Shown here: piece by piece, positions 1 through 19,686 of the stretch
How positions within the stretch are numbered: position 1 is the stretch's first letter
How the letters are laid out: each line of letters opens with the position of its first letter
NCBI GenBank assembly: GCA_037442745.1
Contig: JBBIPP010000016.1
Coordinates: 1-19,779 of the forward strand
Reading direction: 5' to 3'
DNA length: 19,779 bases
From: an archaeon
GTDB lineage: Archaea > SpSt-1190 > DYHY01
Position numbers and translations under genes: made by a program
The notes under the pieces: generated by a model
Told to the model about the DNA's origin: nothing
The model's database searches: none
What the model saw: the letters and a program-made list of their open reading frames with translations, nothing else

Positions 1-291
1 CATAGTATTTAGAATAGTGCTTGGAGAATCCCGTCCCGTCAATATAGAGGCGGCGACTCGCCTTTTTCCGGAACGAGCGTTCCGTTGTCTGGACAAGGTA
101 GAAGAGGTGGGCGTTGTTGGAATAGATTTTGTTCGAGAACCGGGAATTTCTCTCCGGGATGCACCCCTGCTTTCAATAAATACTTCCTGAACAGGTTAAA
201 CAAAGGTTTGTTTGTCACAAAATGAACAAATATCCGGGGCTCTGGCCGGATATTCCTTTCAGTCATTTTCTAGGAGGGTTTCAACAGTCCC
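1..291 (-). mobile_element. IS5-family insertion sequence, left end plus degraded transposase 5' part, running off the window start
   Basis: The minus strand begins GGGACTGTTGAAACCCTCC at 291. Positions 199-291 match the reverse complement of 19687-19779 at 89/93 nt. A transposase-like reading frame follows. An internal 9-bp inverted repeat AATATCCGG/CCGGATATT lies at ~229-254. Confidence 0.8.
2..218 (-). pseudogene. IS5-family DDE transposase N-terminal remnant (frameshift plus internal deletion)
   Basis: The first frame reads VTNKPLFNLFRKYLLKAG. After a shift at ~163 it reads IPERNSRFSNKIYSNNAHLFYLVQTTERSFRKKASRRLYIDGTGFSKHYSKYY. IDGTGF..SKYY resembles the first catalytic Asp motif (IDxTGF) of archaeal IS5 transposases. 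The helical segment usually found between the S..Y motif and IDxTG appears deleted. Confidence 0.7.
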
Positions 292-300
292 TATAACTAT

Positions 301-935
301 TGCATTTATAATTGCCAAGATGAAGTGAATGTTTCCTCTAGATTCTCAACAGGAACTGTTCGTCCCAAAAATGTTACATTGTTTCCGGTTTCGTGGGGAG
401 AAATCAAATTCCTGAAAGGTGTTGCCAATATTTTCGAATTACCGGAAGAGACTGCTTTCCGGGCAGTTCTTGCGAAGAAACTGACGCAAGGCGCCCTGCC
501 CCGGGAGGATAACTAGATCCGAAAGGGAGCTATTGGGAGCTTCTCTGGAAATTGGCAGGAATTTACGGAAAAAATTCGTTGGTTCTCGCCCAAAGGAAGT
601 TTTATTGGGCGCTCGGGACCTATCTCTTTGTCCCTGAAGCTGAACTGAGCTTCCGGGCACATGATGTTGCGTCCGGCAATTTGGCTCTTGGGAGGGGGCT
701 TTCGGTTCCCGAGATCGAACATCTTGTCAGCAACATCCGGGGCAACGCCACAAGGGAACTGACTGCAAAAGCAGGAGGAGCAAAAATAATGAATCTGCCT
801 CCGGAGCAATTGTTCGAAAAATACGTCTTTCCTGTCTCTTCGCCGTCTATAGAATCTGAATTAATCAGAAAAATTGATGGCGTATGCCCCTCATCGGACT
901 CGGGAAAGAGCCCTCAGAGCAGTTTTGCTTGCTTG
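301..935 (+). pseudogene. Possible remnant of an unknown gene, 5'-truncated by the IS
   Basis: A protein-like frame at 301-516 ends in TAG. A protein-like sequence continues in another frame (ORF 552-1082: LAGIYGKNSLVLAQRKFYWALGTYLF...). No recognisable family. The 3' boundary is uncertain. Confidence 0.3.
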
Positions 936-1680
936 CCTCCGAGTTGTCTAGGCTCGAAGGTCTTTGTCTCGTTCTTTTTGTTTTTTGTTTCTGATGCCGA
1001 CAAAAGGGCTTGTCCAAACGCCAAATGGCCAAATCCCTCTTGCATGCATTTTCTCAGGGCGTCTGACATGCAGGCAGATTGAGACTGCCCGTTTCCGGTT
1101 GCCCGGACATTCAGGTCCCCTTTTCTTTTCCTGTTTTTTCTCTTTTTTTCTTGTCTTTCATACAGGGGTGTGTCAGGACATTTGTCCCGACAATTGCGGC
1201 GAAAGCGCATCCGGCCCAGTTGGCAGGAGGCTCGCCTGGAGGCTTCCTCCAATTTCTTCCTCTTTGGTTTCTTCTGCTGTATTTGAATGAAAATGAATGT
1301 GAAAATTGTGTGCTACAGCCCCCGGGAAGAAAGTTTGGTTTTTATTGGGGGTTTGGGGGCTAGCTTTTTGGCTAGTTTGAGAATATATCCTCCCGGGGGG
1401 TTTTTCTTTTGCAGCGGTCGAAAGCCGGCCTGATATTGGTAGACAGGCCTTCCAATTTGGGTTTACGCCCGTTTGGGCTTGGGGGTGGCTAGAAGATTGG
1501 AAGAAAATCTTGGAAAGGCTGCCCTTGATTGTCCCATAAACAAGCCGGCTTTTTGACTGTGAATTGATCATTTTGATTTTTTTCCGTTTTTTGTTTTGTT
1601 TGGTTTTCTTTTTGTTTTAATTGTTGGAAAAGAGAGGGAGGGGCAGACTCCTGCCGGCCGCGCTCCCTGTTGCTCTTTTC
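896..1680 (-). ncRNA. Candidate large structured RNA or 3' UTR downstream of ftsZ
   Basis: Many complementary stems: 1627-1646/1651-1680, 1421-1432/1541-1552, 1319-1329/1389-1399, 1171-1179/1184-1192, 1094-1107 (GCAA tetraloop on minus), 1072-1090, 1001-1008/1035-1042, 913-919/937-943 and 896-913. Most imperfect pairs are G-U on the minus strand and A-C on the plus strand. Confidence 0.5.
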
Positions 1681-1731
1681 GCTTGTTTGTCCGTCGTTAC
1701 TCTCCCGTTGTTCGTGTGTGTCTGTGTAACT

Positions 1732-2799
1732 TTACGCAAGCACAGGGATTCCCAAGTGGTTCGCTGTCTGCTTCGTCCGTATTGACGTTTCCTTCGGGCT
1801 CACTGCTCCGAGGATGTGGGGTGACTTTACCCCAGTTATTATCGTCATTACGCGGATAGAGCCTTCGAGCGCAGGGTCAATCCTCGCGCCCCAGATTACC
1901 GAGGCTCCGGGGTCCATGTCCTTTGCAACGAGGTCTCCGATTGTGTTGACCTCGTCCAGAGTCATGTCCGGCCCTCCGACAACATGCACCATTGCGCCTG
2001 TCGCGCCCTTGTAGTCAACATCGAGCAAGGGGTTCGAGAGCGCCTTCCTGACGGATTCCTCCGCCCTGTTCTCGCTTGTCGATTCCCCGACTCCGATTAC
2101 CGCGACTCCGCCGTTCGACATAACTGCTTTCACGTCTGCATAGTCCAGGTTGACCAGGCTCGGTACTGCGATTGTCTCGACAATTCCCTTGATCATTGTT
2201 GCAATCAGCTCGTCTGCAACCGCGAATGCTTGCGCAATCGGGAGCTTGCCTGCAACCTCAACCAGCCGGTTGTTGTCAATTACAATTACCGTGTCAGTCA
2301 TCTGCCTGAGCTCATAGAGCCCGGCTTCCGCCTTGAAAATCCTTGCCCGTTCCATCTTGAAGGGCATTGTCACAACGCCAATCACAATCGAGCCTTGCTC
2401 CTTTGCGAGCTGAGCAACTACCGGAGCGCTTCCGGTTCCTGTTCCTCCGCCCATCCCTGCAGTGACAAAAACGAGGTCGCAGTTCCGAAGAGAATCTTTT
2501 ATGTCGTTCCTCGCTTCCTCTGCTGCAGCCCTTCCGACTTCTGGATACCCGCCCGCGCCAAGACCTTTTGTAAGGTCACGGCCGATTAGTATCTTCTTGT
2601 CAGCTTCTCTTGCATCAAGGTGGAGCTTGTCAGTGTTCAAAGCAACAACTGTAGCTCCCTGAATGCCCAGACGGTATAGTCTGTCAGCGGTATTGTTTCC
2701 GGCTCCTCCACAGCCAACTACCACTATCCTGGCTTGGCCGACTTCAAAGTCAGCCCCAGGTCTTGCCACGCTTGCCGCACTCTGTAGGACATAGTCCAT
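1732..2799 (-). CDS. ftsZ: Cell division GTPase FtsZ (archaeal FtsZ2-like)
   Basis: Motifs [26 protein letters not shown] (tubulin signature) and T7 loop [10 protein letters not shown] (the Tyr form is typical of FtsZ2). The ATG at 2799 is preferred because SD GGGGTGA lies at 2814-2808; the alternative start is GTG at 2811. Confidence 0.97.
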
Positions 2800-2807
2800 T
2801 TTTTTCT

Positions 2808-3110
2808 TCACCCCGTCATTTCTTTGTTATGGCACTTTTCTGGAACTTTTCTCCCCAATCAGGGGCCCCAAAGGACCCGAGCAAGGGAAGACTTGCTTCA
2901 GAGTGCCGAAATGACTATATACTCGGGATAGCCATAGCTGTCCCAAGAAATTCAAAAAAAATTGAACCTTACCAGTTCAAGAAAATAGAATTTCAACTAA
3001 GACAGACGGAAAGGATACCAGACCAGCTGAGTTTACCAGACTCGCCGGGACACACAAAAACCGTTACCAGCGGATTTGTGCGCAGACTGTACCTATTTCT
3101 CTTTCCGCTT
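2808..3110 (-). promoter_or_regulatory. Candidate structured 5' leader of ftsZ, including the SD site
   Basis: No ORF on the ftsZ strand. Nested stems lie across the whole region. TTACCAG (CUGGUAA on minus) sits at hairpin apices 2969-2975, 3033-3039 and 3064-3070. Stem 2815-2822/2908-2915 abuts the SD. Confidence 0.6.
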
Positions 3111-3169
3111 ATTTGATATATATCCCTAGTTGCACTCTAATTTAATCAATGAATGCTATATACTCGAGA
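2915..3169 (-). repeat. Direct repeat CTATATACTCG(G/A)GA at 2915-2928 and 3156-3169; TATA-like on the minus strand
   Basis: 11 identical bases, 13/14 overall, 241 bp apart. Confidence 0.5.
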
Positions 3170-3283
3170 ACATTAATCAAACTATTTGGATTTATGCCTT
3201 GAATTATCCTTTTTCCGATATTTAACTCTTCCGAGTGGCGAATATTTTTTGGAGTATTTATATTCGGCAATTAACTTGGAAAA

Positions 3284-3612
3284 ATGTTCCAAAGGGGGAA
3301 CTCTATTGAGATTGTTTGCGGAGCGCTCGTTTTCAACAAGAGCGGAAAAATTCTCCTCTTGAAATATCCCAAATTGAAAGGGCTGATAAAAGTTCCCGGA
3401 GGTTGTATTGATTTCTGGGAAAAATATCTGACACATTCGTGAGAGAGGTTTTCGAGGAGACTGGCTTTCGGGCAAAGCCGGGGAAGCCTCTTGAATTCGG
3501 AGAAAGCCTGCTGAGCAAGAAATATAGAAATGGGGGAAGGCACCTCGTTTTTCTCAACTATTACTGCTAAGTTGGAAGAAGGGAGCCAACACCCTCGCTA
3601 AACGACAAGGCA
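3284..3612 (+). pseudogene. NUDIX hydrolase pseudogene
   Basis: ATG at 3284 gives MFQRGNSIEIVCGALVFNKSGKILLLK...VPGGCIDFWEK. A frameshift occurs in the A-run at ~3420, followed by SDTFVREVFEETG (Nudix box) ...HLVFLNYYC and an in-frame TAA at 3568. TATA-like TTTATA lies ~25 nt upstream. Confidence 0.85.
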
Positions 3613-4160
3613 ACCGATTTCTTCCAGAACGCGAAAAAGCAGTTCTATTCTGTCTCGAAGCTTTTGGGAATAACTGATTCCGAAAAGGATATTCTCGCTA
3701 CTCCGAAAAAGTTCCTTGAAGTTTCCATTCAAATAAGAAAGGATTCGGGAAAAACAAAGATCTTCGGGGGCTTTCGCTCAAGGCACTCTACTGCGAGGAG
3801 GCCCGCCAAAGAGGGAACGTGCTAAAATCCCGATGTCAATCCTGAAGTCCGGGCTCTTTCAATGCTAATTAGCTGAAAATGCGCGGTCGCAGAAATTCCC
3901 TAAGGAGGGAGCAAAGAAGGAGTTGTCCGCAATCAGAAGGAATTGTCCATCTGGGAATTTGAGCGGATTTCCCGGAGCTATTTCCGGGCAATCTCTTAAT
4001 TTATCTTCCCGAAAATCGACATTCGGGCGCCAGACGGCTAATACGAGAATTGAAAGGTGAAAGTTCGTTTTCGCTCATAACGGGAAAGTCCTTGTCCTTG
4101 GGCAGTTCACTCGGGCGCGAAAGGTCGACAGCAATTGCGAAACATTTCGCAGGGACATAA
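3613..4160 (+). pseudogene. gdhA: Glu/Leu/Phe/Val (glutamate) dehydrogenase pseudogene, N-terminal domain only
   Basis: FFQNAKKQF...LEVSIQIRKDSGKTKIFGGFRSRHSTARRPAKEG...EVRALSMLIS*KCAVAEIP*GGSKEG...DIRAPD, with stops at 3823, 3874, 3901, 3997 and 4039. After a frame change: ITGKSLSLGSSLGRERSTA. The NAD-binding domain is absent. Confidence 0.9.
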
Positions 4161-4257
4161 TTCTTGCCGGAAGGGCTCGCTCAGCGAAAATCTTGGCAGA
4201 CACTCCGACAGGCATCCAACACAATTAAATAGGAAAAAGGACTTTTTACAAGCGGAG

Positions 4258-6462
4258 ATGGGGGGGAGCGAATCCGGGCGCCTGTTTTTTGTCCTCTTGC
4301 TGGGAGTTTTCCTTATTTTTTTCCAAGGATTCCCGGCAGAACGCCAGATCTCCTCCTGCTCCCCGATAACCGAACCGGGCTCCTATTTCCTCTCAAATGA
4401 TCTGACGAATTCAACTACGAAAATACAGAACACTTATCCGGTTTGCCTGAAAATAAACGCATCGAACGTCCGCCTTGACTGCCGAGGATTTTCAATAACC
4501 GAATATTCTCCAAGCAACTCAATAGGGATATTCGCCCAAGGTTTTGCCAGAAACATAACTATTGAGAACTGCCCGAACATTTCCGGCTTTGAGACTGGAA
4601 TTCATTTCTCTGGGATTATTGACGGAGGAATACGGAATTCTGGGATTTTCGGGAACCTAAAGGGGGTTTATCTTGCATCCTCGGGCGGCAACTCGATTGC
4701 GTTGAACAATTTTTCAAGGAACCCTACAGGAATTGGCTCGTATAATTCAGAGAACAACGAATTCGTCGGAAACAGGATTTTTGAGAGCAAGGATGCAGGA
4801 ATAGCCATTGAAGGCTCTCTGGGAACAGTCGCCCCGGGAAGGGAGAATCTGCTAATAACAAACATTCTCGCCTCCGGAGTGAAGGGAATTGAAATTGTCC
4901 GCTCTGGCGGAAACATTCTGCTCGGAAACATCCTCTCCAATTTCTCGGGGAACGCAATACACATAAGGTCTGCATCGAAGAACAATGTTTCCGGAAACGA
5001 GATTTACGGCTCGAAAATCGGGATTTTCCTTGAGACTTCCTACGCCAACTTTTTGTCCTGCAACTATTTCGCGAACAACGCGTTTTCGGACATCGAGTCA
5101 TACTACAGCACAGACGACCTGAGGAACGCTTCCTGCTCTGAAAACGCGACAATAAACGCTAGAACAACGACAACTACCCAGTCGCCTCCGACATCGGTTG
5201 TTCCCGGGACAAGCACAACAGTGCTAACAACAATCCCTGCATGCTCCTGCGGGCCCTGGGTATTGAAGGGTTGCAATTTCGGAGGGTGCCCTGAAGGGAG
5301 CGAATATTCCGAGAGGGTGTGCGCGCCAGCAGGATGCGCCCCGGAAAAGTCGTGCATAATTAACCATTATTGCTATGTTCCGCCAAAGACAACGACAACT
5401 GTTCCCGCTCCGGCATGCCCGCCGAACTGCGAAGACAATAACCCTTGCACAAGGGACTTTTGCTCGAACAACACAGGATTCCTCTGTAGCCATTCCCCAT
5501 ATCCGGAAGGGTTCGCATGCGGAAGCAATTTTGTCTGCTCAAGGAACGCCACCTGCGATAAGAGGCAGATTGCAATTTCCTGCCCCGTCTGCAATCCCCC
5601 GACGGAATGGTCGGAATGCGATTCGGAGAAAAGGACAAGGCAGGTCAATTACTGCGGTCCTGAAACCGGCTATTTCTGCGTCCCGTATTCAGAAACTGAA
5701 GCATGCGCTGCCCAAACAACAGTTCCGACAACCTCCCCTACAACAACGTTGTCAGCCCCGGAATGCAAATCAAACTCGGATTGCCCAGTCTCCCAATTGT
5801 GCTCCGGAGGGAAATGCAAGAATCCCAAACTGACATTTGTCTTCGTCCCAGTATCCTGGAACGGATCGAGGGAGGCATTCATTGGCGAAGCGGAGAAATC
5901 GCTCTCCTTTTTCGTCTCAAACACGCCCCTTTCAGCATGCCCGGAGAGGGTGAAAATTGTTTTCGGAACTGAACCCTGCCCGGCCAAAATTTCCTGCAAG
6001 ACCTGCGGGGAGGCAATTGCAATAAGGAACTGCGCAAAGAGGGTCGTTCCAGCATTCGACATTGCTGTCGGTCTGACTGATAACAACAACCTCTGCGGAG
6101 GCCCGAGCATCAGGGGATTTTCCTGCAAAGTCGGGGGGGTTTTCGTGAAAAGCGGTTTCGCCGGAGTCCTTGCCCACGAAGCAGGGCATGAGTTCGGCCT
6201 GAGGGACGAATACTGCAACTACGGGACGAAATGCGGGGCATTGGCAGTCCCAAATCCCCTGAAGAAAGAATACGGGTGCGACCCGGAATCAAAGGACTGC
6301 TGTTCTTGCTCCGGTACATACTCTGTCTGTTGCCAGGGGAATTTGAACGCTTTCGGGGGGAGGTCAATAATGAGCTATGCGAATGCTCCGGGCCCGAGAG
6401 CGTTTGACGAGCCATCCCTAGCCCACCTGAGGACTCTTGACAAAATGAGGTGTGACACATGA
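4258..6462 (+). CDS. Secreted modular protein: NosD-like right-handed beta-helix, Thr-rich linkers, Cys-rich repeats and a C-terminal metzincin-type zinc metallopeptidase
   Basis: Hydrophobic signal after ATG 4258; GIxLxxSxNNxIxxN repeats; TTTTT linkers; CEDNNPCTRDFC and WSEC..RTR modules; HEAGHEFGLRDEY zinc motif and SIMSY Met-turn. Confidence 0.85.
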   Translation: MGGSESGRLFFVLLLGVFLIFFQGFPAERQISSCSPITEPGSYFLSNDLTNSTTKIQNTYPVCLKINASNVRLDCRGFSITEYSPSNSIGIFAQGFARNITIENCPNISGFETGIHFSGIIDGGIRNSGIFGNLKGVYLASSGGNSIALNNFSRNPTGIGSYNSENNEFVGNRIFESKDAGIAIEGSLGTVAPGRENLLITNILASGVKGIEIVRSGGNILLGNILSNFSGNAIHIRSASKNNVSGNEIYGSKIGIFLETSYANFLSCNYFANNAFSDIESYYSTDDLRNASCSENATINARTTTTTQSPPTSVVPGTSTTVLTTIPACSCGPWVLKGCNFGGCPEGSEYSERVCAPAGCAPEKSCIINHYCYVPPKTTTTVPAPACPPNCEDNNPCTRDFCSNNTGFLCSHSPYPEGFACGSNFVCSRNATCDKRQIAISCPVCNPPTEWSECDSEKRTRQVNYCGPETGYFCVPYSETEACAAQTTVPTTSPTTTLSAPECKSNSDCPVSQLCSGGKCKNPKLTFVFVPVSWNGSREAFIGEAEKSLSFFVSNTPLSACPERVKIVFGTEPCPAKISCKTCGEAIAIRNCAKRVVPAFDIAVGLTDNNNLCGGPSIRGFSCKVGGVFVKSGFAGVLAHEAGHEFGLRDEYCNYGTKCGALAVPNPLKKEYGCDPESKDCCSCSGTYSVCCQGNLNAFGGRSIMSYANAPGPRAFDEPSLAHLRTLDKMRCDT

Positions 6463-7100
6463 AAAGGCACGTTTTCCCCGCAGGTCTCTTTCTCATTGTG
6501 CTTTTGATTTCTCCGGTTTTCTCGGTTTCCGCTCAGGAGTATTCGGTTGAATTCCAGGTGGAAATTTATCTGGACGGAACAGGAAAAATAATCTCATACT
6601 CACCAATCCCAGGGAGTTCATGGGAAAGTTACGGCGAATACCAGGCAACCCTTTTCTCCGGCAAAAGCCCGGTTTCCAGTTCAAATTTCTCGGCGGATTT
6701 CCTTCTCCTTACGGACCCCCCAATCGAAACCTCTGAGGCAATTGGGCTAGTCAAGCTTCCGGCAGGAAATGGATTGCCCGACAGAATCGACATACTCTCT
6801 CCCAACGGGAACCTCGTTCTCTCAGAAAGAATCTCTGTTTGCAACAAAGATTCCCTCTGCCAGAGCCCGGAGGAAAACAGGCTTTCTTGCCCAAGTGATT
6901 GCCTAGGTCTCCCAGACGGACTCTGCGAGCCCGATTTGGCCGGATGCGACTCCGACTGCGAAAATTTGGCGGATTCCGACTGCCTCCGGGTCGGGGAAAG
7001 CAAAGGCGGAGTCAACCTCTCGCTTTTCCTCTCAATTCTCCTCGGGATTGCTGTCTTCCTCGCATACTACCTCTACAGCTGGAAGAAGGCTCGCCTCTGA
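6459..7100 (+). CDS. Membrane-anchored surface protein with a Cys/Asp-rich stalk
   Basis: N-terminal signal peptide; CNKDSLC..ENRLSCPSDC..DGLC..CDSDC..DSDC; C-terminal TM helix with a basic tail (WKKARL). ATGA overlap with the upstream gene. Confidence 0.8.
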   Translation: MKRHVFPAGLFLIVLLISPVFSVSAQEYSVEFQVEIYLDGTGKIISYSPIPGSSWESYGEYQATLFSGKSPVSSSNFSADFLLLTDPPIETSEAIGLVKLPAGNGLPDRIDILSPNGNLVLSERISVCNKDSLCQSPEENRLSCPSDCLGLPDGLCEPDLAGCDSDCENLADSDCLRVGESKGGVNLSLFLSILLGIAVFLAYYLYSWKKARL

Positions 7101-7161
7101 GGGACCGTGCGGAATCACGCAAAACTCTTTATATTCGGGAGAATGGCGAAAGGGGCTTTTC

Positions 7162-8354
7162 ATGGAAATATCCAGAGGCTTCTTTTCGTTCGGCAGTCCT
7201 CAGGCAGCCGGGAAAATATTACCTGATTTGAAGAAAACCTAGTTCTTCCTAGCAGTTCTTCTTCTCGGAACGCTCTCTTTCCTCGGAGGAATGACCTTCA
7301 AGCAGGTTCTCGCAGTCTGCATAGTCGCCTCGTTCATTCTCGGGACCATTCTCTACTGGGAACTGAAGCTCGCATTCGCTTTCATAGGGCTTGCGCTATC
7401 CTTTGCATCCGGGATTCTTGACATTCCAAATTTCGTTGAATTCGCGTCCCTTGAGATAATCGAGTTCCTGATTGGAATGATGCTCTTCGTCGGATTCTTC
7501 AAGAAAAACAAGCTTTTCGAATATCTAATAGGCAAAATTGTCACGCTGCTCTCCGGAAATCAAGTCCTGTTTTTCTCGCTCCTCGTTCTCTCCGCCTTTC
7601 TCTCGGCAGTTGTCGATGAAGTGACGTCAATTCTCTTCATGACGGGAATGATTTTCTGCATATGCTCGAGAATCTGGATAGCGCCGGTTCCACTCCTTAT
7701 GCTCTCGATTTTAGCTACAAACATTTGTAGCAGCGCGACTGCTGTCGGAAACCCTGTAGTGGTGCTGATTGCAATAAAAGGCAAGCTCTCGTTCGGGGAC
7801 TTTTGTGCCGGCAACGCCGGTAACTTTGCTGGTTCTTCTCGCATTCCTTGTTTTCGTCTTTGTTTTCTTCCGGGATTATATTAGGGAATTCTCTGAAAAG
7901 ATGGGCCCGGTGCACTATCGCAAAGGTTTTGAGGAAGTCAAGTTCAGCGTAGCCAGAATAAACGGCTTGATTCTCTTGGGAATAGTCTTTCTTGGGTTAA
8001 TATTCAACGGAACAATTGAGAAGGCTCTTCATCTTAGCAAAAACAGCCTGCTTTTGGGCGAGCGCATTCCTCGACAATGTCCTTGCGGTTGCGACATTCT
8101 CGCCTGTGGTGGAAGGTCTGGAAACAGTCAATGCTGGGAACGTTCTTTGGTTGGCCTTTCTCTTCTGGGGAACCCTTTTTGGGAACCTGACAATAATCGG
8201 AAGCACGGCGAACATTGTCGCGCTGGGGCTCCTCGAAAAGAACTATTGGATAGAAATAGGCTTCCTTGAATTGATGAAATACGGCTTTTTCGTCACATTC
8301 GTGACTGTCGGCGTGGCGATTTCGGCAATACCAATAAGGAACGGTCTCGTATAA
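7162..8354 (+). pseudogene. ArsB/NhaD/CitMHS (ion transporter superfamily) permease pseudogene
   Basis: Motifs LSAVVDEVTSIL, ATNICSSATAVGNP, FLDNV and GNLTIIGSTANIV are split over three frames (7291, 7805, 8016). There is an in-frame TAG at 7240, a frameshift at ~7805 and a frameshift with apparent deletion at ~8058. Confidence 0.85.
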
Positions 8355-8371
8355 GCTGGGAGGAAAAGGAT

Positions 8372-8866
8372 ATGAAAAATGCGGATTTTTCGGGGAAAGG
8401 CCTGATTGTCAAGAAAAGGGACTGTCGATCGGAGCCTTTCCAGATTGAGAAAATAGAAAAGGGCCTAGTGCGCGCTGGAACGGGGTCCCTACTTGCAACA
8501 GATCTGGCAAAAGCAATCGCCGGGGAATTCTCCGGGAAAAAATATGTCGAATCGAGGGAGATAAGGGATAGCGTGATTTTCCGGCTCGGAAAAAAAGAGG
8601 CCGGTCTCGCGGACAGGTTCTCGAAATACAAGAAAATAAAGGAGAAAATATCCGAGGGCGAGCCCATTTTGAAAGAAAGGCTGTTTGTTCTCTGCGGGCA
8701 TATGGGAATACTCCGCTCAACATATGGGGGGTTTGAAATCGAGGTGATAAAGGAGACTGAGAATTCCTTTGACTATTCAGCCATTTTCATGGAAGCTGGC
8801 AACAGCAGAATGACCGTTCTGATAGAGTGCAGAAACGACATAATCCACATTATTCTCAGACAATAG
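8372..8866 (+). CDS. ATP-cone domain protein with an uncharacterised C-terminal domain
   Basis: IVKKRDCRSEPFQIEKIEKGL...VESREIRDSV..L...LADRFSKYKK matches the ATP-cone pattern (VxKRDGxxExFxxxKI...EI). Confidence 0.75.
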   Translation: MKNADFSGKGLIVKKRDCRSEPFQIEKIEKGLVRAGTGSLLATDLAKAIAGEFSGKKYVESREIRDSVIFRLGKKEAGLADRFSKYKKIKEKISEGEPILKERLFVLCGHMGILRSTYGGFEIEVIKETENSFDYSAIFMEAGNSRMTVLIECRNDIIHIILRQ

Positions 8867-8902
8867 GAAAAATTCAACCAGACCTTCAGTCCGCCCGGGG
8901 AA

Positions 8903-10102
8903 TCAGTATATCTTGACGTTCTTCTTAAAAGTCCTAACCGAATAAAGCGATTTTATTGCAATTGGAGCAAGTATTGATGTTGCAAAAGTCACTGCAATTA
9001 TTGCTGAGAAAGGCTCCTTTGAAAGTATTCCTGAGGAAACCCCGATTAGGCCGACTAGGAGAGAAATTTCCCCCAAGGGAATCATCCCCGCCCCTATTAC
9101 TGCTGATTCCTTCATCCCGAGGCGAAACAGCCTTGATGAAAAAAAGCCGGCAAGGAACTTGGTCGAGACTGAAACCGCGAACACTACAAGGAAGAGGAAG
9201 AGACCGTGGAGGGAAAACACGCTTTTCAGGTCGACTAGCACTCCCAAGGAGACGAAAAAGAGGCTCCCGAATATCATTTCCAGATATCTCGCGCCCTCCT
9301 TGTGGCCCCCTTCCTCGACTTTGTTTATTGAAAGGCCGGCAATGAACGCTCCTACAAGGGATGAGAGGCCGAACAGCTCCGCAAGAACCCCGTAGGAGAA
9401 TGCGACAAATACAGCGGCAATCATCGGGGCGTGCTCGTATTCCCTGTTGAGCATTGCCCAGTTATGAAGGCTTATCAGCCTATCAGAAATGAAGCGCTTT
9501 CCGAAAACATATGCTGAGACAAGGAATATTACCGCAAAGACCAGGCGCCCGAAAAGCGAGAGGATCGAGATGCTTCCGGCAAACGCCACCTGCTGGGAAA
9601 TTGAAAGCGCAAGGAGAGCCAGTATGTCGTCGAAAACCGTTGCCCCGAGAAAAACCTTCGCCTCCTTTCTGTCAAGCTTCCCTAGATCTGAGAAAACTTT
9701 GACAGTTATTGCAGTTCCTGTGGAAGCTATTGCTATTCCCATGAAAGTGGAGGCAATCCAGTCAAGGCCAAGGGCTCTTGAAACAAGCACGCCTGCGCCT
9801 ATTGGTATTGCCTGTCCGGTCGTTGCGACAACTATTGCCTTTGTGTCAGTAAGATCAGTCGCCTTCATCCCGAGGCCGACAGTGAAGAGGAGGAATATTG
9901 CGCCTATCAGAGCGACAGTCTGTATTGTCTCTGAATAGGAGACTATCCCCAGGAACGAAGGGCCTATAAGAGTCCCGATGAAAAGCCCCCCGAGTATTGA
10001 GGGTTGCTTGAAGCGAGCGGCAATGAAAAATCCGACAAGGGACGAGAATAAAAGGAGGCTTATCTGGAGGGCAATTCCAGATATTGCCTGGGCGTCCGTC
10101 AT
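8903..10102 (-). CDS. Cation:proton antiporter, CPA2 (KefB/NapA-like)
   Basis: Roughly 12-13 TM segments; FLLFTVGL, GATVFDDIL, VGAFIAGL and GMIPLGEISL. The start at 10102 is preferred because TTAAATA lies ~25 nt upstream; the ORF is open to 10156. Confidence 0.9.
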   Translation of the reverse strand: MTDAQAISGIALQISLLLFSSLVGFFIAARFKQPSILGGLFIGTLIGPSFLGIVSYSETIQTVALIGAIFLLFTVGLGMKATDLTDTKAIVVATTGQAIPIGAGVLVSRALGLDWIASTFMGIAIASTGTAITVKVFSDLGKLDRKEAKVFLGATVFDDILALLALSISQQVAFAGSISILSLFGRLVFAVIFLVSAYVFGKRFISDRLISLHNWAMLNREYEHAPMIAAVFVAFSYGVLAELFGLSSLVGAFIAGLSINKVEEGGHKEGARYLEMIFGSLFFVSLGVLVDLKSVFSLHGLFLFLVVFAVSVSTKFLAGFFSSRLFRLGMKESAVIGAGMIPLGEISLLVGLIGVSSGILSKEPFSAIIAVTFATSILAPIAIKSLYSVRTFKKNVKIY

Positions 10103-10237
10103 TCCCGCTTTGAGTTGCTGGTACATATTTAACTTTTTTCCGGGACCTTTTCTCATAGCGCGCCCCGGGCAAATGGAAGTCTTGGATTTGGAGCGGAAAA
10201 ATTCGGCAGGTACTGCCTGAAAAAGCTGGCTCGCTTG

Positions 10238-11605
10238 TTAACTTTCGGAAAAGGGGTCTGATGCGGATATTGACTGGTTAATCTCGCCAGCCAAGTTCTC
10301 AAGAAGAAGGGCTTTTGTTTCATCCAAAGACTTTCCCTGCCCTAGGAGCCAAGCAAGCTTCACATAAGCGACTTCCGGAAGAATGTCTTTTCCGAATACA
10401 GCTCCGGTATTCCCGAGAAGGCGAAGGTTCCGATAAGTGTAAGGATGGGTTGTCCCGTAGATTGTCTGGGTTGTTGCGACAACAACGCAACCAGAATCAA
10501 CCGCCCGCTTCACTGAAGGAATCCAGGATTTGGGCCCGTTGGAAATTACATGGCCGAGGCCTGTTCCCTCAATTACCAGCCCCTTGTACCTCTTGGAAAC
10601 GTAAAAGTCGATTATTTCTGGGGACATGTTCGGGGCGCATTTCACAAGAGCGACTTTGTCCTCGAAAACTGGGGAGGGAAAACTCACCTTAGCTTCCCTT
10701 GAAAATCCGGAGAAGCCAGGAAGAAGAGCCTCAACTTGGCCGTCCGGGAAAATCTTTGCGAAAGGCGTTTGGTTCACAGACTTGAAGGCATCCCTCCGGG
10801 AAGAGTGCATTTTCCTGGCTTTTGTCCCGAGATGTGCAAGGCAATAGTCTGTGTCGTTCGTTGTCCCGTGCATTACGAGAAAGACTCCTGAGAACCTCTC
10901 CTTTGCAATGAAATTCGCGGCAGCGAGGAGATTTATTGAGCCGTCAAAACTTCCCCGGTCGGGCGACCTCTGTGCTCCGACAACGCAGACAGGCTTCTTC
11001 GCCAAATGAAGGGCGAACGAGAGCGCCGCTGAAGTGTAGTGGAGAATGTCCGTTCCGTGCGTGACAATTACTCCCGATATCTCCGGGTCGTTCAATTGCC
11101 TGCCAACCTCTTCTGCGAGGAGAGAAAAGTGGGAAAAATCCATGTCTTCAGATGCTAAAGTGAATGGGGAAGAGACGCTCGCAATATCAACGATTTTCGA
11201 TATTTCTGGAACTGTTGAAATGACCTCTTCCGGCGTCCTGCACATGTAGACCCCTCCGGTTGCATAATCGACATGCGTTCCAATTGTCCCTCCGGTTGCA
11301 ACAAGGGCGATTTTCGGGAGCCCGAGCGCAGAGGAAGGCCTCTTGAAACTCAGGGGGATTGCTTTCCCTATCCCTATTCCGGCCCCAGTCCTCCTTATTG
11401 CGGTTATTTTCTCCGGATCCGCCGAGAAATTGTATCCGCTATTGAGCTTGATTACAATTATTCGCGCATTCCCCTCGGAAATCCGGGGCATCAGTATTCC
11501 TTTCTCAGAAGAGCCGTCGGAGAATTCTATCTCAACCTCGTTCCCTTCGGAAATCCCCGAGAGGAATTTTGATTCTATTTCTTCAGGATAGCTTGTCCGG
11601 GGCAT
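10238..11605 (-). CDS. gatD: Glu-tRNA(Gln) amidotransferase subunit D
   Basis: N-terminal GILMPR...KLNSGYN domain plus asparaginase motifs ATGGTI, THGTD, GAQRSPDRGS, RKMHSSRRDAF and EGTGLGH. Confidence 0.97.
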   Translation of the reverse strand: MPRTSYPEEIESKFLSGISEGNEVEIEFSDGSSEKGILMPRISEGNARIIVIKLNSGYNFSADPEKITAIRRTGAGIGIGKAIPLSFKRPSSALGLPKIALVATGGTIGTHVDYATGGVYMCRTPEEVISTVPEISKIVDIASVSSPFTLASEDMDFSHFSLLAEEVGRQLNDPEISGVIVTHGTDILHYTSAALSFALHLAKKPVCVVGAQRSPDRGSFDGSINLLAAANFIAKERFSGVFLVMHGTTNDTDYCLAHLGTKARKMHSSRRDAFKSVNQTPFAKIFPDGQVEALLPGFSGFSREAKVSFPSPVFEDKVALVKCAPNMSPEIIDFYVSKRYKGLVIEGTGLGHVISNGPKSWIPSVKRAVDSGCVVVATTQTIYGTTHPYTYRNLRLLGNTGAVFGKDILPEVAYVKLAWLLGQGKSLDETKALLLENLAGEINQSISASDPFSES

Positions 11606-11752
11606 TCTGCGAAGATGCCCCTGAAGTATAAAAGATTGGCGGATTTCTGGAGAGCAGGGTTACCCGGAACAAGACATTTTCAGCCAGGATTGCTTTCTTC
11701 GAAGGCGCTCCCCGGGAAAAACCTTTAAACCAAAACAAGTGACAGACATCCG
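11606..11752. promoter_or_regulatory. Divergent promoter region of gatD and gatE
   Basis: AAAAACCTTTAAAC at ~11717-11730 (BRE/TATA-like, ~25 nt before the gatE ATG). CTTTTATAC on the minus strand at ~11626-11634 (~25 nt before the gatD ATG). Confidence 0.6.
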
Positions 11753-13618
11753 ATGAAGGCCGGGCTAGAAATACACCAGCAGCTTGATCCAGGAAACCAG
11801 CTTGGCGTTACCGGACGGAAGCTTTTTTGCAGATGCCCTTGCGTCCTCAGGGAAGAGTCTCCTGACGTTGTTGTCAGGAGGTTCCTCCGGCCGGTTGCAA
11901 GCGAACTCGGGGAGCGCGACATCATAAGCGAGGCTGAAGCGAGTAAGAAAAAGACCTTCGTCTACGAGGCGTATTCGGATTCCACCTGCCTTGTCGAAAT
12001 TGACGAGGAGCCGCCGAAATCCCTCGATTCGGACGCCCTTGAGACTGCCCTCATAATTTCAAGGAGCCTGAATTGCAAAATCCTTCCGGAAATAAACACA
12101 ATGAGAAAGGCTATTATTGACGGCTCCTGCCCGTCAGGCTTTCAGAGGACTGCGCTTGTCGCAAGGGACGGCTTTGTCGAGGTTTCCGGAAAACGGATAA
12201 GAATAGAATCTGTCTGCATTGAGGAGGATGCGGGACGGATGATTGCCTCAGGGGACAATTCCGCAACTTTCCGCCTTGACCGTCTCGGAATCCCCTTGGT
12301 TGAGATAACAACCGCTCCGGACATCTCGAGCCCTGAAGAGGCGAAAGAAGTTGCCGGAAGAATCGGACTGCTACTTAGAATGACTGGGCGAGTCGGAAGA
12401 GGCCTTGGGACAATAAGGCAGGACATTAACATTTCCGCCGACGGGGGGGCGCGCGTCGAATTGAAGGGGGTCCAGAACCTCGGGGAAATTCCCCTTATTG
12501 TTGAGCGGGAGATCGCAAGGCAGGAAGCGCTCGTAAGAATGGGGGAGAAATACTGGCGGACGCTTTCAAGAGCCTCCGAAGGAAAAGTTCCCCTTTCTAC
12601 AGCGGAATTAACGGACTGCTTTTCGGGAACGGAGTGCAAGCTCCTGAAAGGAAAGCGGGTATTTGGAAAGAGCTTCCCCGGAATTGCCGGAATGCTGAAG
12701 GAACCTCTGGACGAAGGGAGGACATTTGGAAAGGAGGTCGCAGAAAAGGTCAGGGTTCTCACAAAAGCGAAAGGCTTCATACACACTGACGAGGATATTT
12801 CCAAATATGGAATATCTCAGGAGGAGATTTCAAAAGCAAAGAAAGCCCTCCTAGCAGGGGAAAACGACCTTGTCTTCATTGTAACGGGGGAATCTTCTTT
12901 CGATTTTGAGGGTCCCTTGAATGTGATAGAGGAAAGGATATTTTCGGCAGGGAAGGGAGTTCCTGGGGAGACGAGAAAAGTCAATCCGGACAATTCCTCC
13001 AGTTTCCTTCGGCCAATTTCCGGAAGCGCAAGGTTCTATCCGGAAACGGACATCTCCCCGGTAGGAACGTCAGACTTGCTCGGGAAATTGCCGGAAATCG
13101 AGACTCCGGAAGATAGGCTCTCAATGCTTAGGAACCTCGGACTCTCGGAAAACCTTGCAAAGAAAGTCCTTGTTTCAGAGAAATACTGGGTTTTCAGAAA
13201 GGCAATTGATATGGGAGTTCCCCCGGTTCTTTCAGCAACAATTGTCGAGGAAACAATTCCCTATCTTGAAAGGAAGGGCGTCCTTGAGTTCTCAAAAATT
13301 CCAGAGGGCGCGCTAAACATTTTCCTGAAACAAACTGGGGAGGGAAAAATACTGAGGGAATTGATTCCCTCCGCCCTTGAGGCAATCGGCAAGGGGGAAG
13401 GATTCGCGACCCAACTTTCCGGCGCTCCCGGTGCTGAATCAGTTTCAGCGGAAATTGAGAAGCTTGTCAAAAACAAGTCGGACTACATAAGAAAGGAAGG
13501 TCTATCAAGGGCAATGAGCGGGCTAATGGGGCTTGCAATGGAAAAGTTCAAGGGACAGGTCGCGGGAGCCGAGCTGAAATCCCTGATTGAACTGCATGCG
13601 AAGAAAATGGCTGATTGA
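11753..13618 (+). CDS. gatE: Glu-tRNA(Gln) amidotransferase subunit E
   Basis: GLEIHQQL, KLFCRCP, IDGS..SGFQRT, LDRLGIPLVEI, GLGTIRQD, ELKGVQ, GAD-type insertion (GFIHTDE) and RFYPETD. Confidence 0.97.
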   Translation: MKAGLEIHQQLDPGNQLGVTGRKLFCRCPCVLREESPDVVVRRFLRPVASELGERDIISEAEASKKKTFVYEAYSDSTCLVEIDEEPPKSLDSDALETALIISRSLNCKILPEINTMRKAIIDGSCPSGFQRTALVARDGFVEVSGKRIRIESVCIEEDAGRMIASGDNSATFRLDRLGIPLVEITTAPDISSPEEAKEVAGRIGLLLRMTGRVGRGLGTIRQDINISADGGARVELKGVQNLGEIPLIVEREIARQEALVRMGEKYWRTLSRASEGKVPLSTAELTDCFSGTECKLLKGKRVFGKSFPGIAGMLKEPLDEGRTFGKEVAEKVRVLTKAKGFIHTDEDISKYGISQEEISKAKKALLAGENDLVFIVTGESSFDFEGPLNVIEERIFSAGKGVPGETRKVNPDNSSSFLRPISGSARFYPETDISPVGTSDLLGKLPEIETPEDRLSMLRNLGLSENLAKKVLVSEKYWVFRKAIDMGVPPVLSATIVEETIPYLERKGVLEFSKIPEGALNIFLKQTGEGKILRELIPSALEAIGKGEGFATQLSGAPGAESVSAEIEKLVKNKSDYIRKEGLSRAMSGLMGLAMEKFKGQVAGAELKSLIELHAKKMAD

Positions 13619-15069
13619 CAAATTCGGAAATGGCAATTCTTGAACTTGGTTTTGAAATAATCGGGCGCGAAGGGGGCAAGTCCGTTTTCGAAAACGAGTT
13701 CTCCAAAGTCGTTGTCTCGGATTCCGGGAAAATGGAATATTCCCCGAAGGGGCTTCAAAAGCTTGATTCTGAAGATGTCTTCAGGATAGGAAAGATTGTG
13801 GAAGCATACCAAAAGCTCCCTGAAATTGTGGAGACTGGAGAGAAACGCGCAGGAGAGATAAGAGCGCTTGTGTCAAGATACGAGTCAGCTCTCGGAAAAA
13901 AGCTCCCGCCGGAAAAAAGAGAGTTGTACGAGAAAATTGTTTTCCTCTCAACGGGAGAGGGCGCAATGCCCCTAGAGCCCCTTCTGAAAGACCCTTTTAT
14001 TGAGGAAATAATGGTTAACGGGACCTCTTCTCCTATATTCATTTACCACAGGAAATTCGGGATGCTTCCGACAAGCCTCAGGTTCACCTCAAGCGAATAT
14101 CTCGTGGAAAAGGCGAACCAGCTCCTGTTTCCAATGGGAAGGAGGGTTGACAGGTCAAAGCCGTCGGCCCATGCAATCCTCCCTTCGGGCGAAAGGATTT
14201 CGGTTGAAATACCACCAATCTCAAAGGAGCCCTCAATTGCAATAAGGAAATTCTCGGAAACCCCCCTGACAATAACGGATTTGGTTGGCCTCGGAATGCT
14301 TGACTTTGATTCTGCCGCATTCCTGTCCTTGGCAATATCTGCAGGGGCATCGAATATCGGGGTAATTGGGAATACTGGCGCGGGGAAAACAACCCTTTTG
14401 AACGCCCTCCTGCGGTTCGTTCCGGAGAGGCAAAGGGTTGCTGTAGTGGAAGAAATTCCGGAGATTTCAATTCCCCACGAGAACAAAGTCTGCCTCTCGG
14501 AGGCTGAGAACCTCGGGATACGGATGGGCTTTCTTGTGCGAGAAACTCTCCGCCTAAGGCCAGACAGGATAGTGATTGGGGAAGTTAGGAGCCGGGAAGA
14601 CGCGTCAGCATTGAGGGAAGCCTGCCTCTCCGGTCCAGCATATTCCACATTCTACACATATCATGCGGATTCCCCAGAGGGCGCAGTCGAGCGGCTGAAA
14701 AGTCAGGGAATTGGGGAAAACGACCTCGGATATTTCGGACTTCTTGTTTCTTGCAGGCGGTTTGAGACGAAAAATGAGGGGCTTTTGAGGAAAGTTCTTG
14801 AAATCTCGGAAATTGACGGGAAAGGCAAGGTAAGGAAAATATTCAGGCAGTCCGGGAAGGGGAGAGGGAGCCTGAAAAAAATGGGCGCCAAGTCAAAAAC
14901 AGAGGAGCGGATTTCAAGGGAATTCCTCGGGGGGGTGCCAATCGGGCCTGAGATTGCCTCGAGAAAATCTCTCCTAAAGGGGCTCGCGAAACTCTCAGAC
15001 AGGGAATTTTTCAGGGAATTCTCCGAAAAAACTGCAGGAAAAACAGGGGGGAAATGGCGGACTGGCTGA
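13615..15069 (+). CDS. Type II/IV secretion ATPase (TadA/CpaF/VirB11 family), pilus assembly
   Basis: DPFIEEIMVNG, IAIRKF, Walker A GNTGAGKTT, Asp box VEEIPEI, Walker B LRLRPDRIVIGEVR and TYHA. The start is TTG 13615 or ATG 13630. Confidence 0.93.
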   Translation: MTNSEMAILELGFEIIGREGGKSVFENEFSKVVVSDSGKMEYSPKGLQKLDSEDVFRIGKIVEAYQKLPEIVETGEKRAGEIRALVSRYESALGKKLPPEKRELYEKIVFLSTGEGAMPLEPLLKDPFIEEIMVNGTSSPIFIYHRKFGMLPTSLRFTSSEYLVEKANQLLFPMGRRVDRSKPSAHAILPSGERISVEIPPISKEPSIAIRKFSETPLTITDLVGLGMLDFDSAAFLSLAISAGASNIGVIGNTGAGKTTLLNALLRFVPERQRVAVVEEIPEISIPHENKVCLSEAENLGIRMGFLVRETLRLRPDRIVIGEVRSREDASALREACLSGPAYSTFYTYHADSPEGAVERLKSQGIGENDLGYFGLLVSCRRFETKNEGLLRKVLEISEIDGKGKVRKIFRQSGKGRGSLKKMGAKSKTEERISREFLGGVPIGPEIASRKSLLKGLAKLSDREFFREFSEKTAGKTGGKWRTG

Positions 15070-15079
15070 GAAGGTCAAT

Positions 15080-15787
15080 TTGGCGAGACTTTCTGGAATC
15101 AAGATTGCGGAAAAGCTCTCAAAACCCCTGGTTGTTTTCTTCATTTGCTCCTCGGCCTATTTCCTGGTTTCATCCAGTCCGCTTTTTCTTCTTGGCTCCC
15201 TTCTACTTGCCCTTGCCTCAATCCGCCTCCCGTCAATTCTCGGAAAAGTTGCGGAAATCGAGTTCAGGAAAAGCGTTGAGAGGGGCCTTGGAAGCTTCCT
15301 GATGAAATACTCCCATTTCCTCGGGCTCGGCCTTAATCCCGTGAACGCACTGGAAGAGGCTTCGCGGGGAGAGGGAATGGCGGAAGAGCTTGCAAGAAGG
15401 ATGCTTGAGAGCGCGAGGAAAGGCGAAGCGCTTGAGAAGGCAATTTCCCGGATATCTGAGAGCGCGCTCTCGGAGAAAGCGGTCAGCGCATTCTCGGCAA
15501 TTTCGGCAGTTCTTGTTGATGGATACGACGGCTCGGCAAAGGTGCTTCTTGACGGGACTGCTCAGGGGTTAATCGAGGAAGAGGAGAACGCCCTTGAAAA
15601 GCATTCCGCTGACTCCCAGATAGTTTTCATCTCAATTGTTTTCCTCTCGGCAGTTGTCCCGGCAATCGCAGGAGTCCTCCTTGCGCTCTCGAAAGGGGGC
15701 TCCTCCCTTGCGCCCGCCCTCTTCCTCGGGGTTTTCCCGTTTTTGTCAGTTGCCCAATATCTCTATGTGAGGATCTCTTCCCCATGA
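15080..15787 (+). CDS. TadB/TadC-like (T2SS F domain) pilus platform membrane protein
   Basis: N-terminal TM pair; ERGLGSFL...GLNPVNALEE...GEALEKAI; two C-terminal TMs; follows the ATPase. The start is uncertain. Confidence 0.75.
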   Translation: MARLSGIKIAEKLSKPLVVFFICSSAYFLVSSSPLFLLGSLLLALASIRLPSILGKVAEIEFRKSVERGLGSFLMKYSHFLGLGLNPVNALEEASRGEGMAEELARRMLESARKGEALEKAISRISESALSEKAVSAFSAISAVLVDGYDGSAKVLLDGTAQGLIEEEENALEKHSADSQIVFISIVFLSAVVPAIAGVLLALSKGGSSLAPALFLGVFPFLSVAQYLYVRISSP

Positions 15788-16485
15788 TGCGGATTTTCAG
15801 GGAGTCTGACGAATCGAAAATAGAAAGGGAGTTAGTCGTGTTCCTTCTCAGGCTCTCCCGGATTCCAAAGGGCTCTCCTGCGCGCGCAATCCTCTCGAGA
15901 GCTGATGGGAAAACTGAAATCGGGCGGAGGCTCCGAAAGGCTGAAACCGCATATGAAAAGCATTCTGGACGAAAAAGCCTCGCGGACTGCATTCTCTCGG
16001 AGTTCTCCGAATTCTCGGGAAACAGGAGAATTTCGATTTTCGCAAGGACAATTGTCATAGGAATCGGGAACAATTTCGATGCGGGGGAGCTTGTGAGAAA
16101 AACCGCAAGGGAGCTCGAAGGCCTAAAATCAATTGAGGACAAGCGGAAAAATTCCCTGCGGATTCAGAAATACACCCTTCTTGCGTCCGCCGGCTTCTTC
16201 GTCCCGTTCATCCTCGGGACAACATCGTCAATAATATCCATTCTCTCAAAAATGTCAGGGGCGGGAGGGCTTTTCGGATTCGGCGCCTCGGCGGGCAATC
16301 CTGAGATTGTCGGGCTCTCGCTTTTCGGATACTGCCTGATTCTTCCGATAATTTCGGCAAAGGTCGCCTCAGACATCTCAGGGGGCTCGGACGGGGAGAA
16401 GGTTAATTCTTTCTGGAAATACTCGCTCGCTCTTCTCTTCGTCTCATCGGCGACTTTCCTATTGTCCCAAAAAATCCTCTCTTGA
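15784..16485 (+). CDS. TadC-like (T2SS F domain) pilus platform membrane protein
   Basis: KIERELVVFLL..., G..LADCI, RKNSLRIQKYTLL followed by three TMs. ATGA overlap with the upstream gene. Confidence 0.75.
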   Translation: MMRIFRESDESKIERELVVFLLRLSRIPKGSPARAILSRADGKTEIGRRLRKAETAYEKHSGRKSLADCILSEFSEFSGNRRISIFARTIVIGIGNNFDAGELVRKTARELEGLKSIEDKRKNSLRIQKYTLLASAGFFVPFILGTTSSIISILSKMSGAGGLFGFGASAGNPEIVGLSLFGYCLILPIISAKVASDISGGSDGEKVNSFWKYSLALLFVSSATFLLSQKILS

Positions 16486-16535
16486 ATAATCCAATTCTGC
16501 AAAAGAATTAAAAGGTTGCTTTGGAATTCCCGGGA

Positions 16536-16709
16536 ATGGCCGGAAGGAAGGGGCTTTCAACCCTTGAATGGATAATAATTGCGGCAATTGTGATAATAAT
16601 GATTGCATACGCCTTGGGCTACTGGTCCGGGATTTGGGGAACTGCTACTGGCGCTGCGGAGAGCGCTAACTCGACATTCTCCTCCGCAGTCTCGAAAGCG
16701 TTCGGCTAG
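16536..16709 (+). CDS. Small archaeal type IV/Flp-like pilin with a class III signal peptide
   Basis: MAGRKG|LSTLEWIIIAAIVII: basic leader, Gly at -1, Glu at +5, hydrophobic helix; 57 aa. AAAAGAATTAAAAG promoter-like element at 16501-16514. Confidence 0.88.
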   Translation: MAGRKGLSTLEWIIIAAIVIIMIAYALGYWSGIWGTATGAAESANSTFSSAVSKAFG

Positions 16710-16721
16710 GAAAGCTGGGAA

Positions 16722-17381: not shown

Positions 17382-17386
17382 GGAGT

Positions 17387-17626: not shown

Positions 17627-17644
17627 TTTCCTTTTTCCTCCTTT

Positions 17645-18175: not shown

Positions 18176-18268
18176 GGCAAATGTGCCACTCCGCACAGTT
18201 ATATATGTTTGTACAGGAAAACAGCCCGAAATCGGGCAATGCATTTATACTGAAAAAGTCGAAACAAT

Positions 18269-18583: not shown

Positions 18584-18646
18584 ATAAGCTTCCTGCAAGT
18601 TCCCGGACAATTGAGGGAAATGTTAAAGGAGAATCGGAGTATTTTG

Positions 18647-19684: not shown

Positions 19685-19686
19685 AG

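Follow-up and report, generated by a model that had tools for sequence, protein, structure and literature searches.

CsrB and RsmZ of bacteria are built of hairpins with repeated A(N)GGA loops, present in 8-22 copies, and act as a sponge for an oligomeric RNA-binding protein. T-box leaders precede aminoacyl-tRNA-related genes; in them, a UGGN bulge in the antiterminator/terminator pair binds the NCCA end of tRNA, and a Stem I carries a specifier loop. Neighbouring hairpins of the Escherichia coli thrS operator mimic the tRNA-Thr anticodon arm at the thrS translation start. These systems are compared here with three hairpins sharing the loop CUGGUAA, which lie upstream of the cell-division gene ftsZ in a 19,779-nucleotide stretch of archaeal DNA (contig JBBIPP010000016.1 of assembly GCA_037442745.1, positions 1 to 19,779; hereafter the window). 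All coordinates are window positions; the element and ftsZ are on the minus strand (the ftsZ strand), and descending ranges read 5' to 3'.

The ftsZ element resembles CsrB and RsmZ in that one short G-rich apical motif is presented on differing stems, a logic of multivalent capture. It differs from them in its motif, YUGGUA, which is without a GGA core, in its number of copies (four) and in its fixed site upstream of an archaeal ftsZ. CsrA (Pfam PF02599) had no match in the source genome (G000; 1,136,343 bases on 20 contigs, 94.5% complete). The likeness to the thrS operator consists of two adjacent hairpins whose loops match the loop of the genome's tRNA-Thr(GGU) at 6 of 7 positions; unlike that operator, the element is located upstream of ftsZ and clear of the ribosome-binding site, and its stems are unlike an anticodon stem. 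As in cell-division genes with tandem promoters or long leaders, a non-coding interval of about 200 nt separates two conserved TATA boxes in front of ftsZ, but here this interval forms a multi-hairpin RNA that covaries and repeats one loop motif. PMC1874595 describes base pairing between two G residues of the RNase P L15 loop and C74 and C75 at the CCA end of tRNA. Like the T-box and L15, the ftsZ element would expose a UGG(N) able to pair with (N)CCA. Unlike T-box leaders, it is without Stem I, specifier and antiterminator, places its UGGU in apical loops and is followed by ftsZ; unlike both the T-box and L15, it has three or four UGG copies instead of one, and the RNase P RNA lies elsewhere in the genome.

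The element had been called undescribed in a preliminary description made from the single sequence, and a search of the whole window at the Rfam 15 gathering score agrees with this, as no family matched. Between 2700 and 3400, three matches at E up to 10 were at chance level, with 11-18 bits against cut-offs of 50-94. Identity as a tRNA was rejected because ARAGORN finds no tRNA in the window, and identity as RNase P RNA, signal recognition particle (SRP) RNA or 16S rRNA was rejected because the first two are located at C8:15619-15922 and C14:3269-3553, respectively, and the 16S rRNA also lies elsewhere. At the level of titles and abstract openings, the literature returned nothing on an archaeal ftsZ leader RNA or a CUGGUAA motif. 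To our knowledge, little has been established about the regulation of archaeal ftsZ, and almost nothing about regulatory RNAs of uncultivated small-genome archaea. The locus offers a covariation-supported candidate in which a promoter-proximal RNA shows one motif several times beside an archaeal ftsZ. Its distribution is narrow, with 3 of the 17 species genomes collected for the phylum carrying it, and its hosts are uncultivated.

Conservation and covariation of the hairpins

The region upstream of ftsZ contains a folded RNA structure that is conserved, covaries among relatives and is linked to ftsZ. Hairpin A (3083-3050) has its CUGGUAA loop at 3070-3064, hairpin B (3048-3023) at 3039-3033 and hairpin C (2994-2947), which consists of an outer and an inner stem, at 2975-2969; all three are seen in the sequence and in the minimum free energy (MFE) fold, and lie 148-284 nt upstream of the ftsZ ATG. 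A fourth copy, CUGGUAU, is situated in the junction at 3021-3015. On re-reading, every sequence and coordinate of the preliminary description proved exact. A helix P1 was proposed to enclose A and B, its 5' strand GCGGAAAG (3108-3101) being complementary to the 3' strand CUUUCCGU (3013-3006) and paired with it in the MFE fold. The conserved pyrimidine tract CCUUUCCGUCUG (3014-3003) would be either the 3' strand of P1 or single-stranded. Consensus folds add a hairpin D at 2944-2925, formed by GGGACAGC, a variable tetraloop and GCUAUCCC.

The minus strand of 3125-2940 folds beyond its shuffles. RNAfold assigned it an MFE of -52.6 kcal/mol (z = -3.36), a stability that 0 of 200 shuffles attained, and recovered all helices named in the preliminary description. 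The opposite strand of the same region reached -39.6 kcal/mol (z = -3.20, with 1 of 200 shuffles as stable), leaving the ftsZ strand more stable by 13 kcal/mol. The fold of the opposite strand is weaker because several pairs are G-U; these were found on the ftsZ strand alone, in line with the earlier statement that the wobble pairs work on that strand only. The motif CTGGTAA occurs 4 times in the window against 1.17 expected, a number reached by 4 of 200 shuffles, and only 55 copies exist genome-wide on both strands together. The cluster upstream of ftsZ is the only group of at least three CTGGTA or TGGTAA within 160 nt in the genome. As a control, heptamers of any kind were found three times within 110 nt at 119 genomic loci, compared with 11-24 in shuffled genomes. 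The single-genome statistic is modest and the pattern on its own merely suggestive, so the strength of the case comes from conservation and covariation in relatives.

The element was found upstream of ftsZ in G001, which belongs to the same genus as G000, in G003 from another genus of the same family, and on the metagenome contig L088 from a strain near-identical to G000. The motif, whose possible absence from relatives had been raised at the outset, is thus present upstream of ftsZ in all three. A covariance model (R1) built from P1, A, B and C gave the four sequences scores of 147-197 bits. Over the 17 genomes at E <= 0.01 it returned one copy in each of 3 genomes and no further match, and three further genomes yielded weak matches with E of 0.10-0.95. 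A weak match on L019 (E 0.0011) was rejected because hairpins A and B were skipped, and one on L012 was weak (E 0.0061). BLAST over 41 relatives gave 3 matches. Scanning metagenomes with an invariant 18-mer chosen outside the hairpins recovered 9 stretches, of which one, L088, was a true homologue. An FtsZ-anchored search collected 80 loci; the upstream sequence was inspected for the 10 closest and 17 were scanned for the motif, which occurred only at L004, a locus with the same sequence as G003. The closest public FtsZ records bear the submitter labels Undinarchaeota, Altiarchaeota or Micrarchaeum. The upstream neighbour is represented by frameshifted Nudix remnants on the other strand in G000, by a 273-aa open reading frame (ORF) on the same strand in G001 and by an FkbM-type methyltransferase on the other strand in G003. 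Since this neighbour differs in each genome while ftsZ is constant, the element travels with ftsZ.

In the R1-based alignment of the four sequences, 88.2% of cells are paired. Changes on both sides were counted in 14 of 41 pairs, compared with 5.4 +/- 1.6 among 500 shuffles, none of which came to 14, a count to be read with the caveat that this alignment was fitted to the structure. When the partners were moved by 1-3 columns, no more than 3 double-changed pairs remained. Hairpins A-D were recovered independently by RNAalifold from plain MAFFT alignments, in which double changes affected 11 of 51 and 15 of 42 pairs. Loops A and B are invariant in all 7 of their columns, compared with 7 of 24 columns in stem A and 5 of 18 in stem B. 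Stem C is invariant in 8 of 24 columns, and its loop reads UUGGUUA in G003. Double changes affect three pairs in hairpin A, 5 of 9 in hairpin B and five in hairpin C, two of them in the outer and three in the inner stem. The constant loop on variable stems, first seen in one genome, therefore holds in the relatives, where covarying stems accompany a conserved CUGGUAA. P1 has one double-changed pair (in G003) and an additional G-C pair in L088 and G001, and 3 of its 8 pairs include an unpaired cell. Hairpin D shows changes from A-U to G-U and from G-C to G-U that are tolerated on this strand only, and a substitution in L088 mends a C-A mismatch.

These data also bear on the reading of CTGGTAA as a DNA operator, in which a transcription factor would bind the direct repeats ahead of the ftsZ promoter. 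The repeats do share one orientation and lie upstream of a conserved TATA box, and TTACCAG on the other strand loosely resembles TTGCCC, a motif of the related family f3. The preliminary description had allowed for such a case, with the heptamer conserved without stems and spaced by 31 and 64 bp in phase with the helix. The stems, as shown above, covary, and the spacing of the motif copies drifts from 31/64 bp in G000 to 33/69 bp in G001 and 37/74 bp in G003, so that helical phasing is not kept, which speaks against phased operators. The flanks have stayed complementary by means of double changes and of G-U pairs, the latter impossible on the opposite strand, and a DNA site would need neither; this favours RNA and makes operators highly improbable. 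Of the RNA-level control element for cell division first suggested, the RNA-level feature stands on loop constancy and covariation, while control of division would follow from its position only.

Predicted promoters and extent of the proposed transcript

The ftsZ coding sequence occupies 2799-1732 on the minus strand, with its ATG at 2799 and its stop at 1734-1732 (Pfam Tubulin 3.6e-47, FtsZ_C 4.8e-36), and a second ftsZ paralogue of about 52% identity is found elsewhere in the genome. For the ftsZ of the window, the Shine-Dalgarno sequence GGGGUGA at 2814-2808 pairs most strongly with the genome's 16S rRNA 3' end (-10.9 kcal/mol). Small ORFs spanning the element (e.g., 2955-2827) were rejected as genes because indels break them in relatives.

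A distal TATA box, ATATATAT at 3123-3116, is part of the block AGAGTGCAACTAGGGATATATATCAAA, shared without change by G000, L088 and G001; the identical stretch around the box measures 27 nt. Of 19 regions examined upstream of ftsZ, 11 have the sequence ATAWATA and, 27-28 nt on, UAGG, UAGA or AAGG. These are 11 of the 15 from the small-genome families f1-f3, whereas the large-genome family f4 has this layout in 0 of 4. The four f1-f3 exceptions have UA(G/A)U at the start-site position. By the usual archaeal distance between TATA box and start, transcription is predicted to begin at the A/G of UAGG (3094-3092), and the hairpin RNA would thus start near A3094, upstream of all three hairpins. With this predicted start, the distance from the RNA 5' end to the first loop is 24-26 nt in each of the three species.

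The 5' strand of P1 is located between the TATA box and the predicted start, which makes P1 in the RNA doubtful. What remains of the enclosing helix originally described is the complementarity in the DNA and in the MFE fold, while its 5' strand appears to fall upstream of the transcript. Formation of P1 would require transcription from a more distant upstream promoter, for which GTATATAG at 3163-3156 (in G000 and L088 only) and TATAAATA at 3262-3255 are candidates. In the consensus fold of RNAs beginning at 3094, the CU-rich tract CCUUUCCGUCUG is unpaired.

At the other end, a U8 run within the 3' side of hairpin C (2960-2953) may be an archaeal oligo-U terminator. It is complete in G000 and L088, and is reduced to U4 plus interruptions in G001 and G003. 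Further downstream, an invariant 18-mer (2922-2905), identical in G000, L088, G001 and G003, contains a proximal TATA box, GTATATAG at 2922-2915; as a candidate promoter of ftsZ, it would place the start near 2894. Such an arrangement could suit a transcriptional insulator or attenuator, in which hairpins and U-run halt distal transcripts before the ftsZ promoter and the loops are kept for folding or tertiary contacts. The two conserved tandem TATA boxes and the U8 run after the inner stem of C agree with this, as do U5-U6 runs in the related genomes G002, G004 and G010. However, the run is broken in G001 and G003, and since the outer stem of C, which covaries, is located past it, at least some transcripts should read through; hairpin D is likewise 3' of the run. 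Termination also does not explain why three or four heptamers are identical to one another and unchanged from genus to genus, and the insulator is considered unlikely.

In all 10 f3 genomes, and also in G002 and G004, an AU-rich element matching the position of the proximal TATA box lies in a hairpin loop. The stem around it varies in sequence among genomes, contains 2-6 G-U pairs and covaries in f3. Because the stem varies and includes G-U pairs, the region appears to be transcribed from upstream in those genomes. The data are compatible with a long structured leader or with a small RNA of its own, and also with the two together if termination is partial.

Motif turnover and candidate partners of the loop

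The favoured though tentative explanation is a structured RNA that presents its loop several times so as to be recognized multivalently by a single trans factor, most probably a protein, with an effect on ftsZ output. A lineage-restricted RNA would be transcribed on the ftsZ strand, probably from the distal promoter (TATA box 3123-3116, start near 3094), and would cover hairpins A, B and C as far as 2947 or beyond, with hairpin D probably included. Its functional surface would be YUGGUA in four copies per RNA, three of them apical as CUGGUAA, which stay constant while the stems evolve freely. We infer both the existence of a ligand and its nature, the putative factor being most probably an oligomeric RNA-binding protein that binds multivalently and sequence-specifically, as well as the effect on ftsZ. 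If the RNA is a leader, binding could set the share of distal transcription and translation that reaches ftsZ; if a separate small RNA is terminated at the U-run, it could act by titrating the factor.

The copies of YUGGU(A/U) number four or more in G000-type RNAs. In G000 they are found in A, B, the junction and C, the junction copy being restricted to G000 and L088; in G001, they are in A, B, the linker (UUUGGUAG) and C. G003 carries copies in A, B and the linker (with UUUGGUAG before hairpin C), as well as UUGGUUA in C. Sister lineages have other motifs. G002, of the same family and with an FtsZ 82% identical, has a smaller element at the same position with UGGGCAA three times, and in G004, of the same order, UGGUG occurs seven times there; the U5-U6 runs of G002, G004 and G010 follow the last hairpin. 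The f3 genomes contain two or three (U/A)GCCC(C) copies, often in loops, together with one conserved covarying hairpin. That repeated motifs differ between lineages suggests a specific co-evolving partner. A fast-evolving pair of RNA and partner attached to a cell-division gene is suggested by these comparisons, and the ftsZ leader may be a phylum-wide, fast-evolving one.

As observed at the individual loci, the G002 variant (L005 = L103) lies 215-95 nt upstream of ftsZ and comprises an enclosing helix, two hairpins and a U6 run. At the f3 loci L104, L106-L113 and L116, other structured RNAs are found about 60-220 nt upstream of ftsZ at the inter-promoter position. Their conserved hairpin is CCGG...CCGG or CUGAG...CUCAG, and a second covarying hairpin loops the TATA-like AU-rich element.

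Several points weigh against multivalent binding of a trans factor by such an RNA. The RNA is known here from sequence alone and its transcript is predicted. The alignment holds only four sequences, two of them near-identical, so that about three lineages underlie the covariation. A candidate for the binding protein was not found, and the CsrA search of the genome was empty. All three copies lie in local hairpin loops at 7 of the 119 triple-heptamer loci of the genome. The invariant proximal TATA box could mean that the ftsZ mRNA never includes the hairpins. Finally, the MFE loop geometries differ among A, B and C, with loops of 4, 7 and 5 nt; these modelled differences would be compatible with sequence read-out, and equally with base pairing to another RNA.

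Base pairing to other RNAs is itself an alternative, in which the CUGGUAA loops and the CU-rich tract of a small RNA would serve as seeds for mRNAs or another RNA, much as staphylococcal RNAs of the RNAIII and RsaE type carry repeated loop motifs. The same heptamer in three loop geometries and once single-stranded suits a Watson-Crick read-out, and f3 RNAs at the same position have C-rich loop motifs complementary to the G-rich ftsZ Shine-Dalgarno sequence. On the other hand, the complement TTACCAG is not enriched at start codons, only 3 of its 55 sites in the genome being close to a putative one, no cluster of complements was found, and no conserved complement is present in the ftsZ leader of G000, G001 or G003. 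This explanation is judged improbable, somewhat more so than the insulator. An anti-Shine-Dalgarno role as the main function of the CU tract was rejected, as it is the best partner of the ftsZ ribosome-binding region in G003 and not in G000 or G001. Mimicry of the Shine-Dalgarno sequence by the loops was rejected as well, because the best duplexes with the 16S 3' end are formed by the real Shine-Dalgarno sequence and the junction at 3023-3008. The junction and CU tract at 3023-3006 (minus strand; CUGGUAUCCUUUCCGU) resemble the 16S 3' end CUGGAUCACCUCCU and make up the second-best duplex region, a likeness that is not conserved in G001 or G003.

The protein or the tRNA 3' ends had both been put forward as ligands. 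In the latter case, the element would be a sensor or sponge whose UGGU loops pair with the ACCA-3' of uncharged tRNA, tying ftsZ to aminoacylation. Many tRNA genes of the genome end in ACCA, and UGG is the part of the motif retained in the G000-type, G002 and G004 variants, G002 and G004 being the remaining genomes of the order. Pairing of the G residues of RNase P L15 with C74 and C75, as given in PMC1874595, supplies a parallel. However, the element has neither T-box architecture nor an Rfam match, f3 has C-rich motifs instead, and the fourth base is G in G002, a mismatch to the common A73. Four base pairs would also be too few without a second contact (e.g., to the tRNA elbow), and none was found. 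A tRNA-end sensor is accordingly given very little probability: with the fourth base varying and f3 motifs C-rich, a universal tRNA-CCA ligand has little support, and of the two ligands first named the protein is favoured.

A further possibility is that the loops mimic the anticodon arm of tRNA-Thr(GGU), read as C32-U33-GGU-A37-A38, and bind threonyl-tRNA synthetase (ThrRS) or an enzyme that modifies anticodon loops. The genome's tRNA-Thr(GGU) loop is UUGGUAA, the same at 6 of 7 positions, and hairpins A and B are adjacent, which would suit a dimeric enzyme. The anticodon-loop features U33 and purine 37 are present in loops A and B of all four sequences and in loop C of three. Yet UUGGUUA (hairpin C of G003) and UGGGCAA (G002) break these rules and would be invalid anticodon loops. 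The chance of a 6-of-7 match to one of the 41 anticodon loops is estimated at about 0.05, the loop-proximal stems are of 3-4 bp with bulges and not the 5-bp anticodon stem, and the gene regulated would be ftsZ and not thrS. Mimicry of tRNA-Thr would be the least probable of the readings considered.

For the favoured reading of a multivalent RNA bound by a trans factor, identification of the partner would establish a new post-transcriptional or attenuation circuit for archaeal division, and even with no partner the locus would add a new structured RNA family to Rfam-type catalogues. If the tRNA-end reading were true, the element would be an archaeal convergent counterpart of the CCA recognition of T-box and RNase P type. 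Read-through or translation of ftsZ would then be coupled to the amino-acid supply of a host-dependent small-genome archaeon.

Other repeats in the genome and neighbouring sequences

No second CTGGTA(A) cluster or regulon was found in the genome. Two CTGGTAA at C4:74525 and C4:74668 were rejected as a second element because they are without a similar fold; they are 143 nt apart in an intergenic region (C4:74520-74735, plus strand), and one is closed by a 5-bp stem. A TGGTA cluster at C8:57826-57976 was rejected as a further copy since it is a duplicate of a tRNA-Ala D arm. The stretch C8:57850-57976 (minus strand) is a partial copy of the 5' part of tRNA-Ala, comprising the acceptor and D arm, about 70 nt upstream of the tRNA-Ala(GGC) gene, and stable hairpins come after it. 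The six other loci with heptamers in three local loops are C10:7404, C9:60519, C9:38243, C9:19850, C8:63100 and C5:1080, each with its heptamer three to four times within 110 nt.

Downstream of ftsZ, the ORFs at 1173-1571, 552-1082, 914-1252 and 513-809 had no Pfam match, and those at 1173-1571 and 552-1082 also had no tblastn match in 7 related loci; the stretch 1-1731 may be non-coding or poorly conserved. Upstream, at 3284-3570 on the plus strand, two adjacent short ORFs in different frames together resemble a frameshifted Nudix hydrolase, the second having a weak Pfam NUDIX match below the cut-off (E 0.0078). The pair is probably a pseudogene divergent from ftsZ. Further along the plus strand, a 775-aa ORF at 4135-6462 contains NosD/beta-helix repeats, Cys-rich repeats and a weak reprolysin-like metallopeptidase end, and it looks like a secreted or surface protein.

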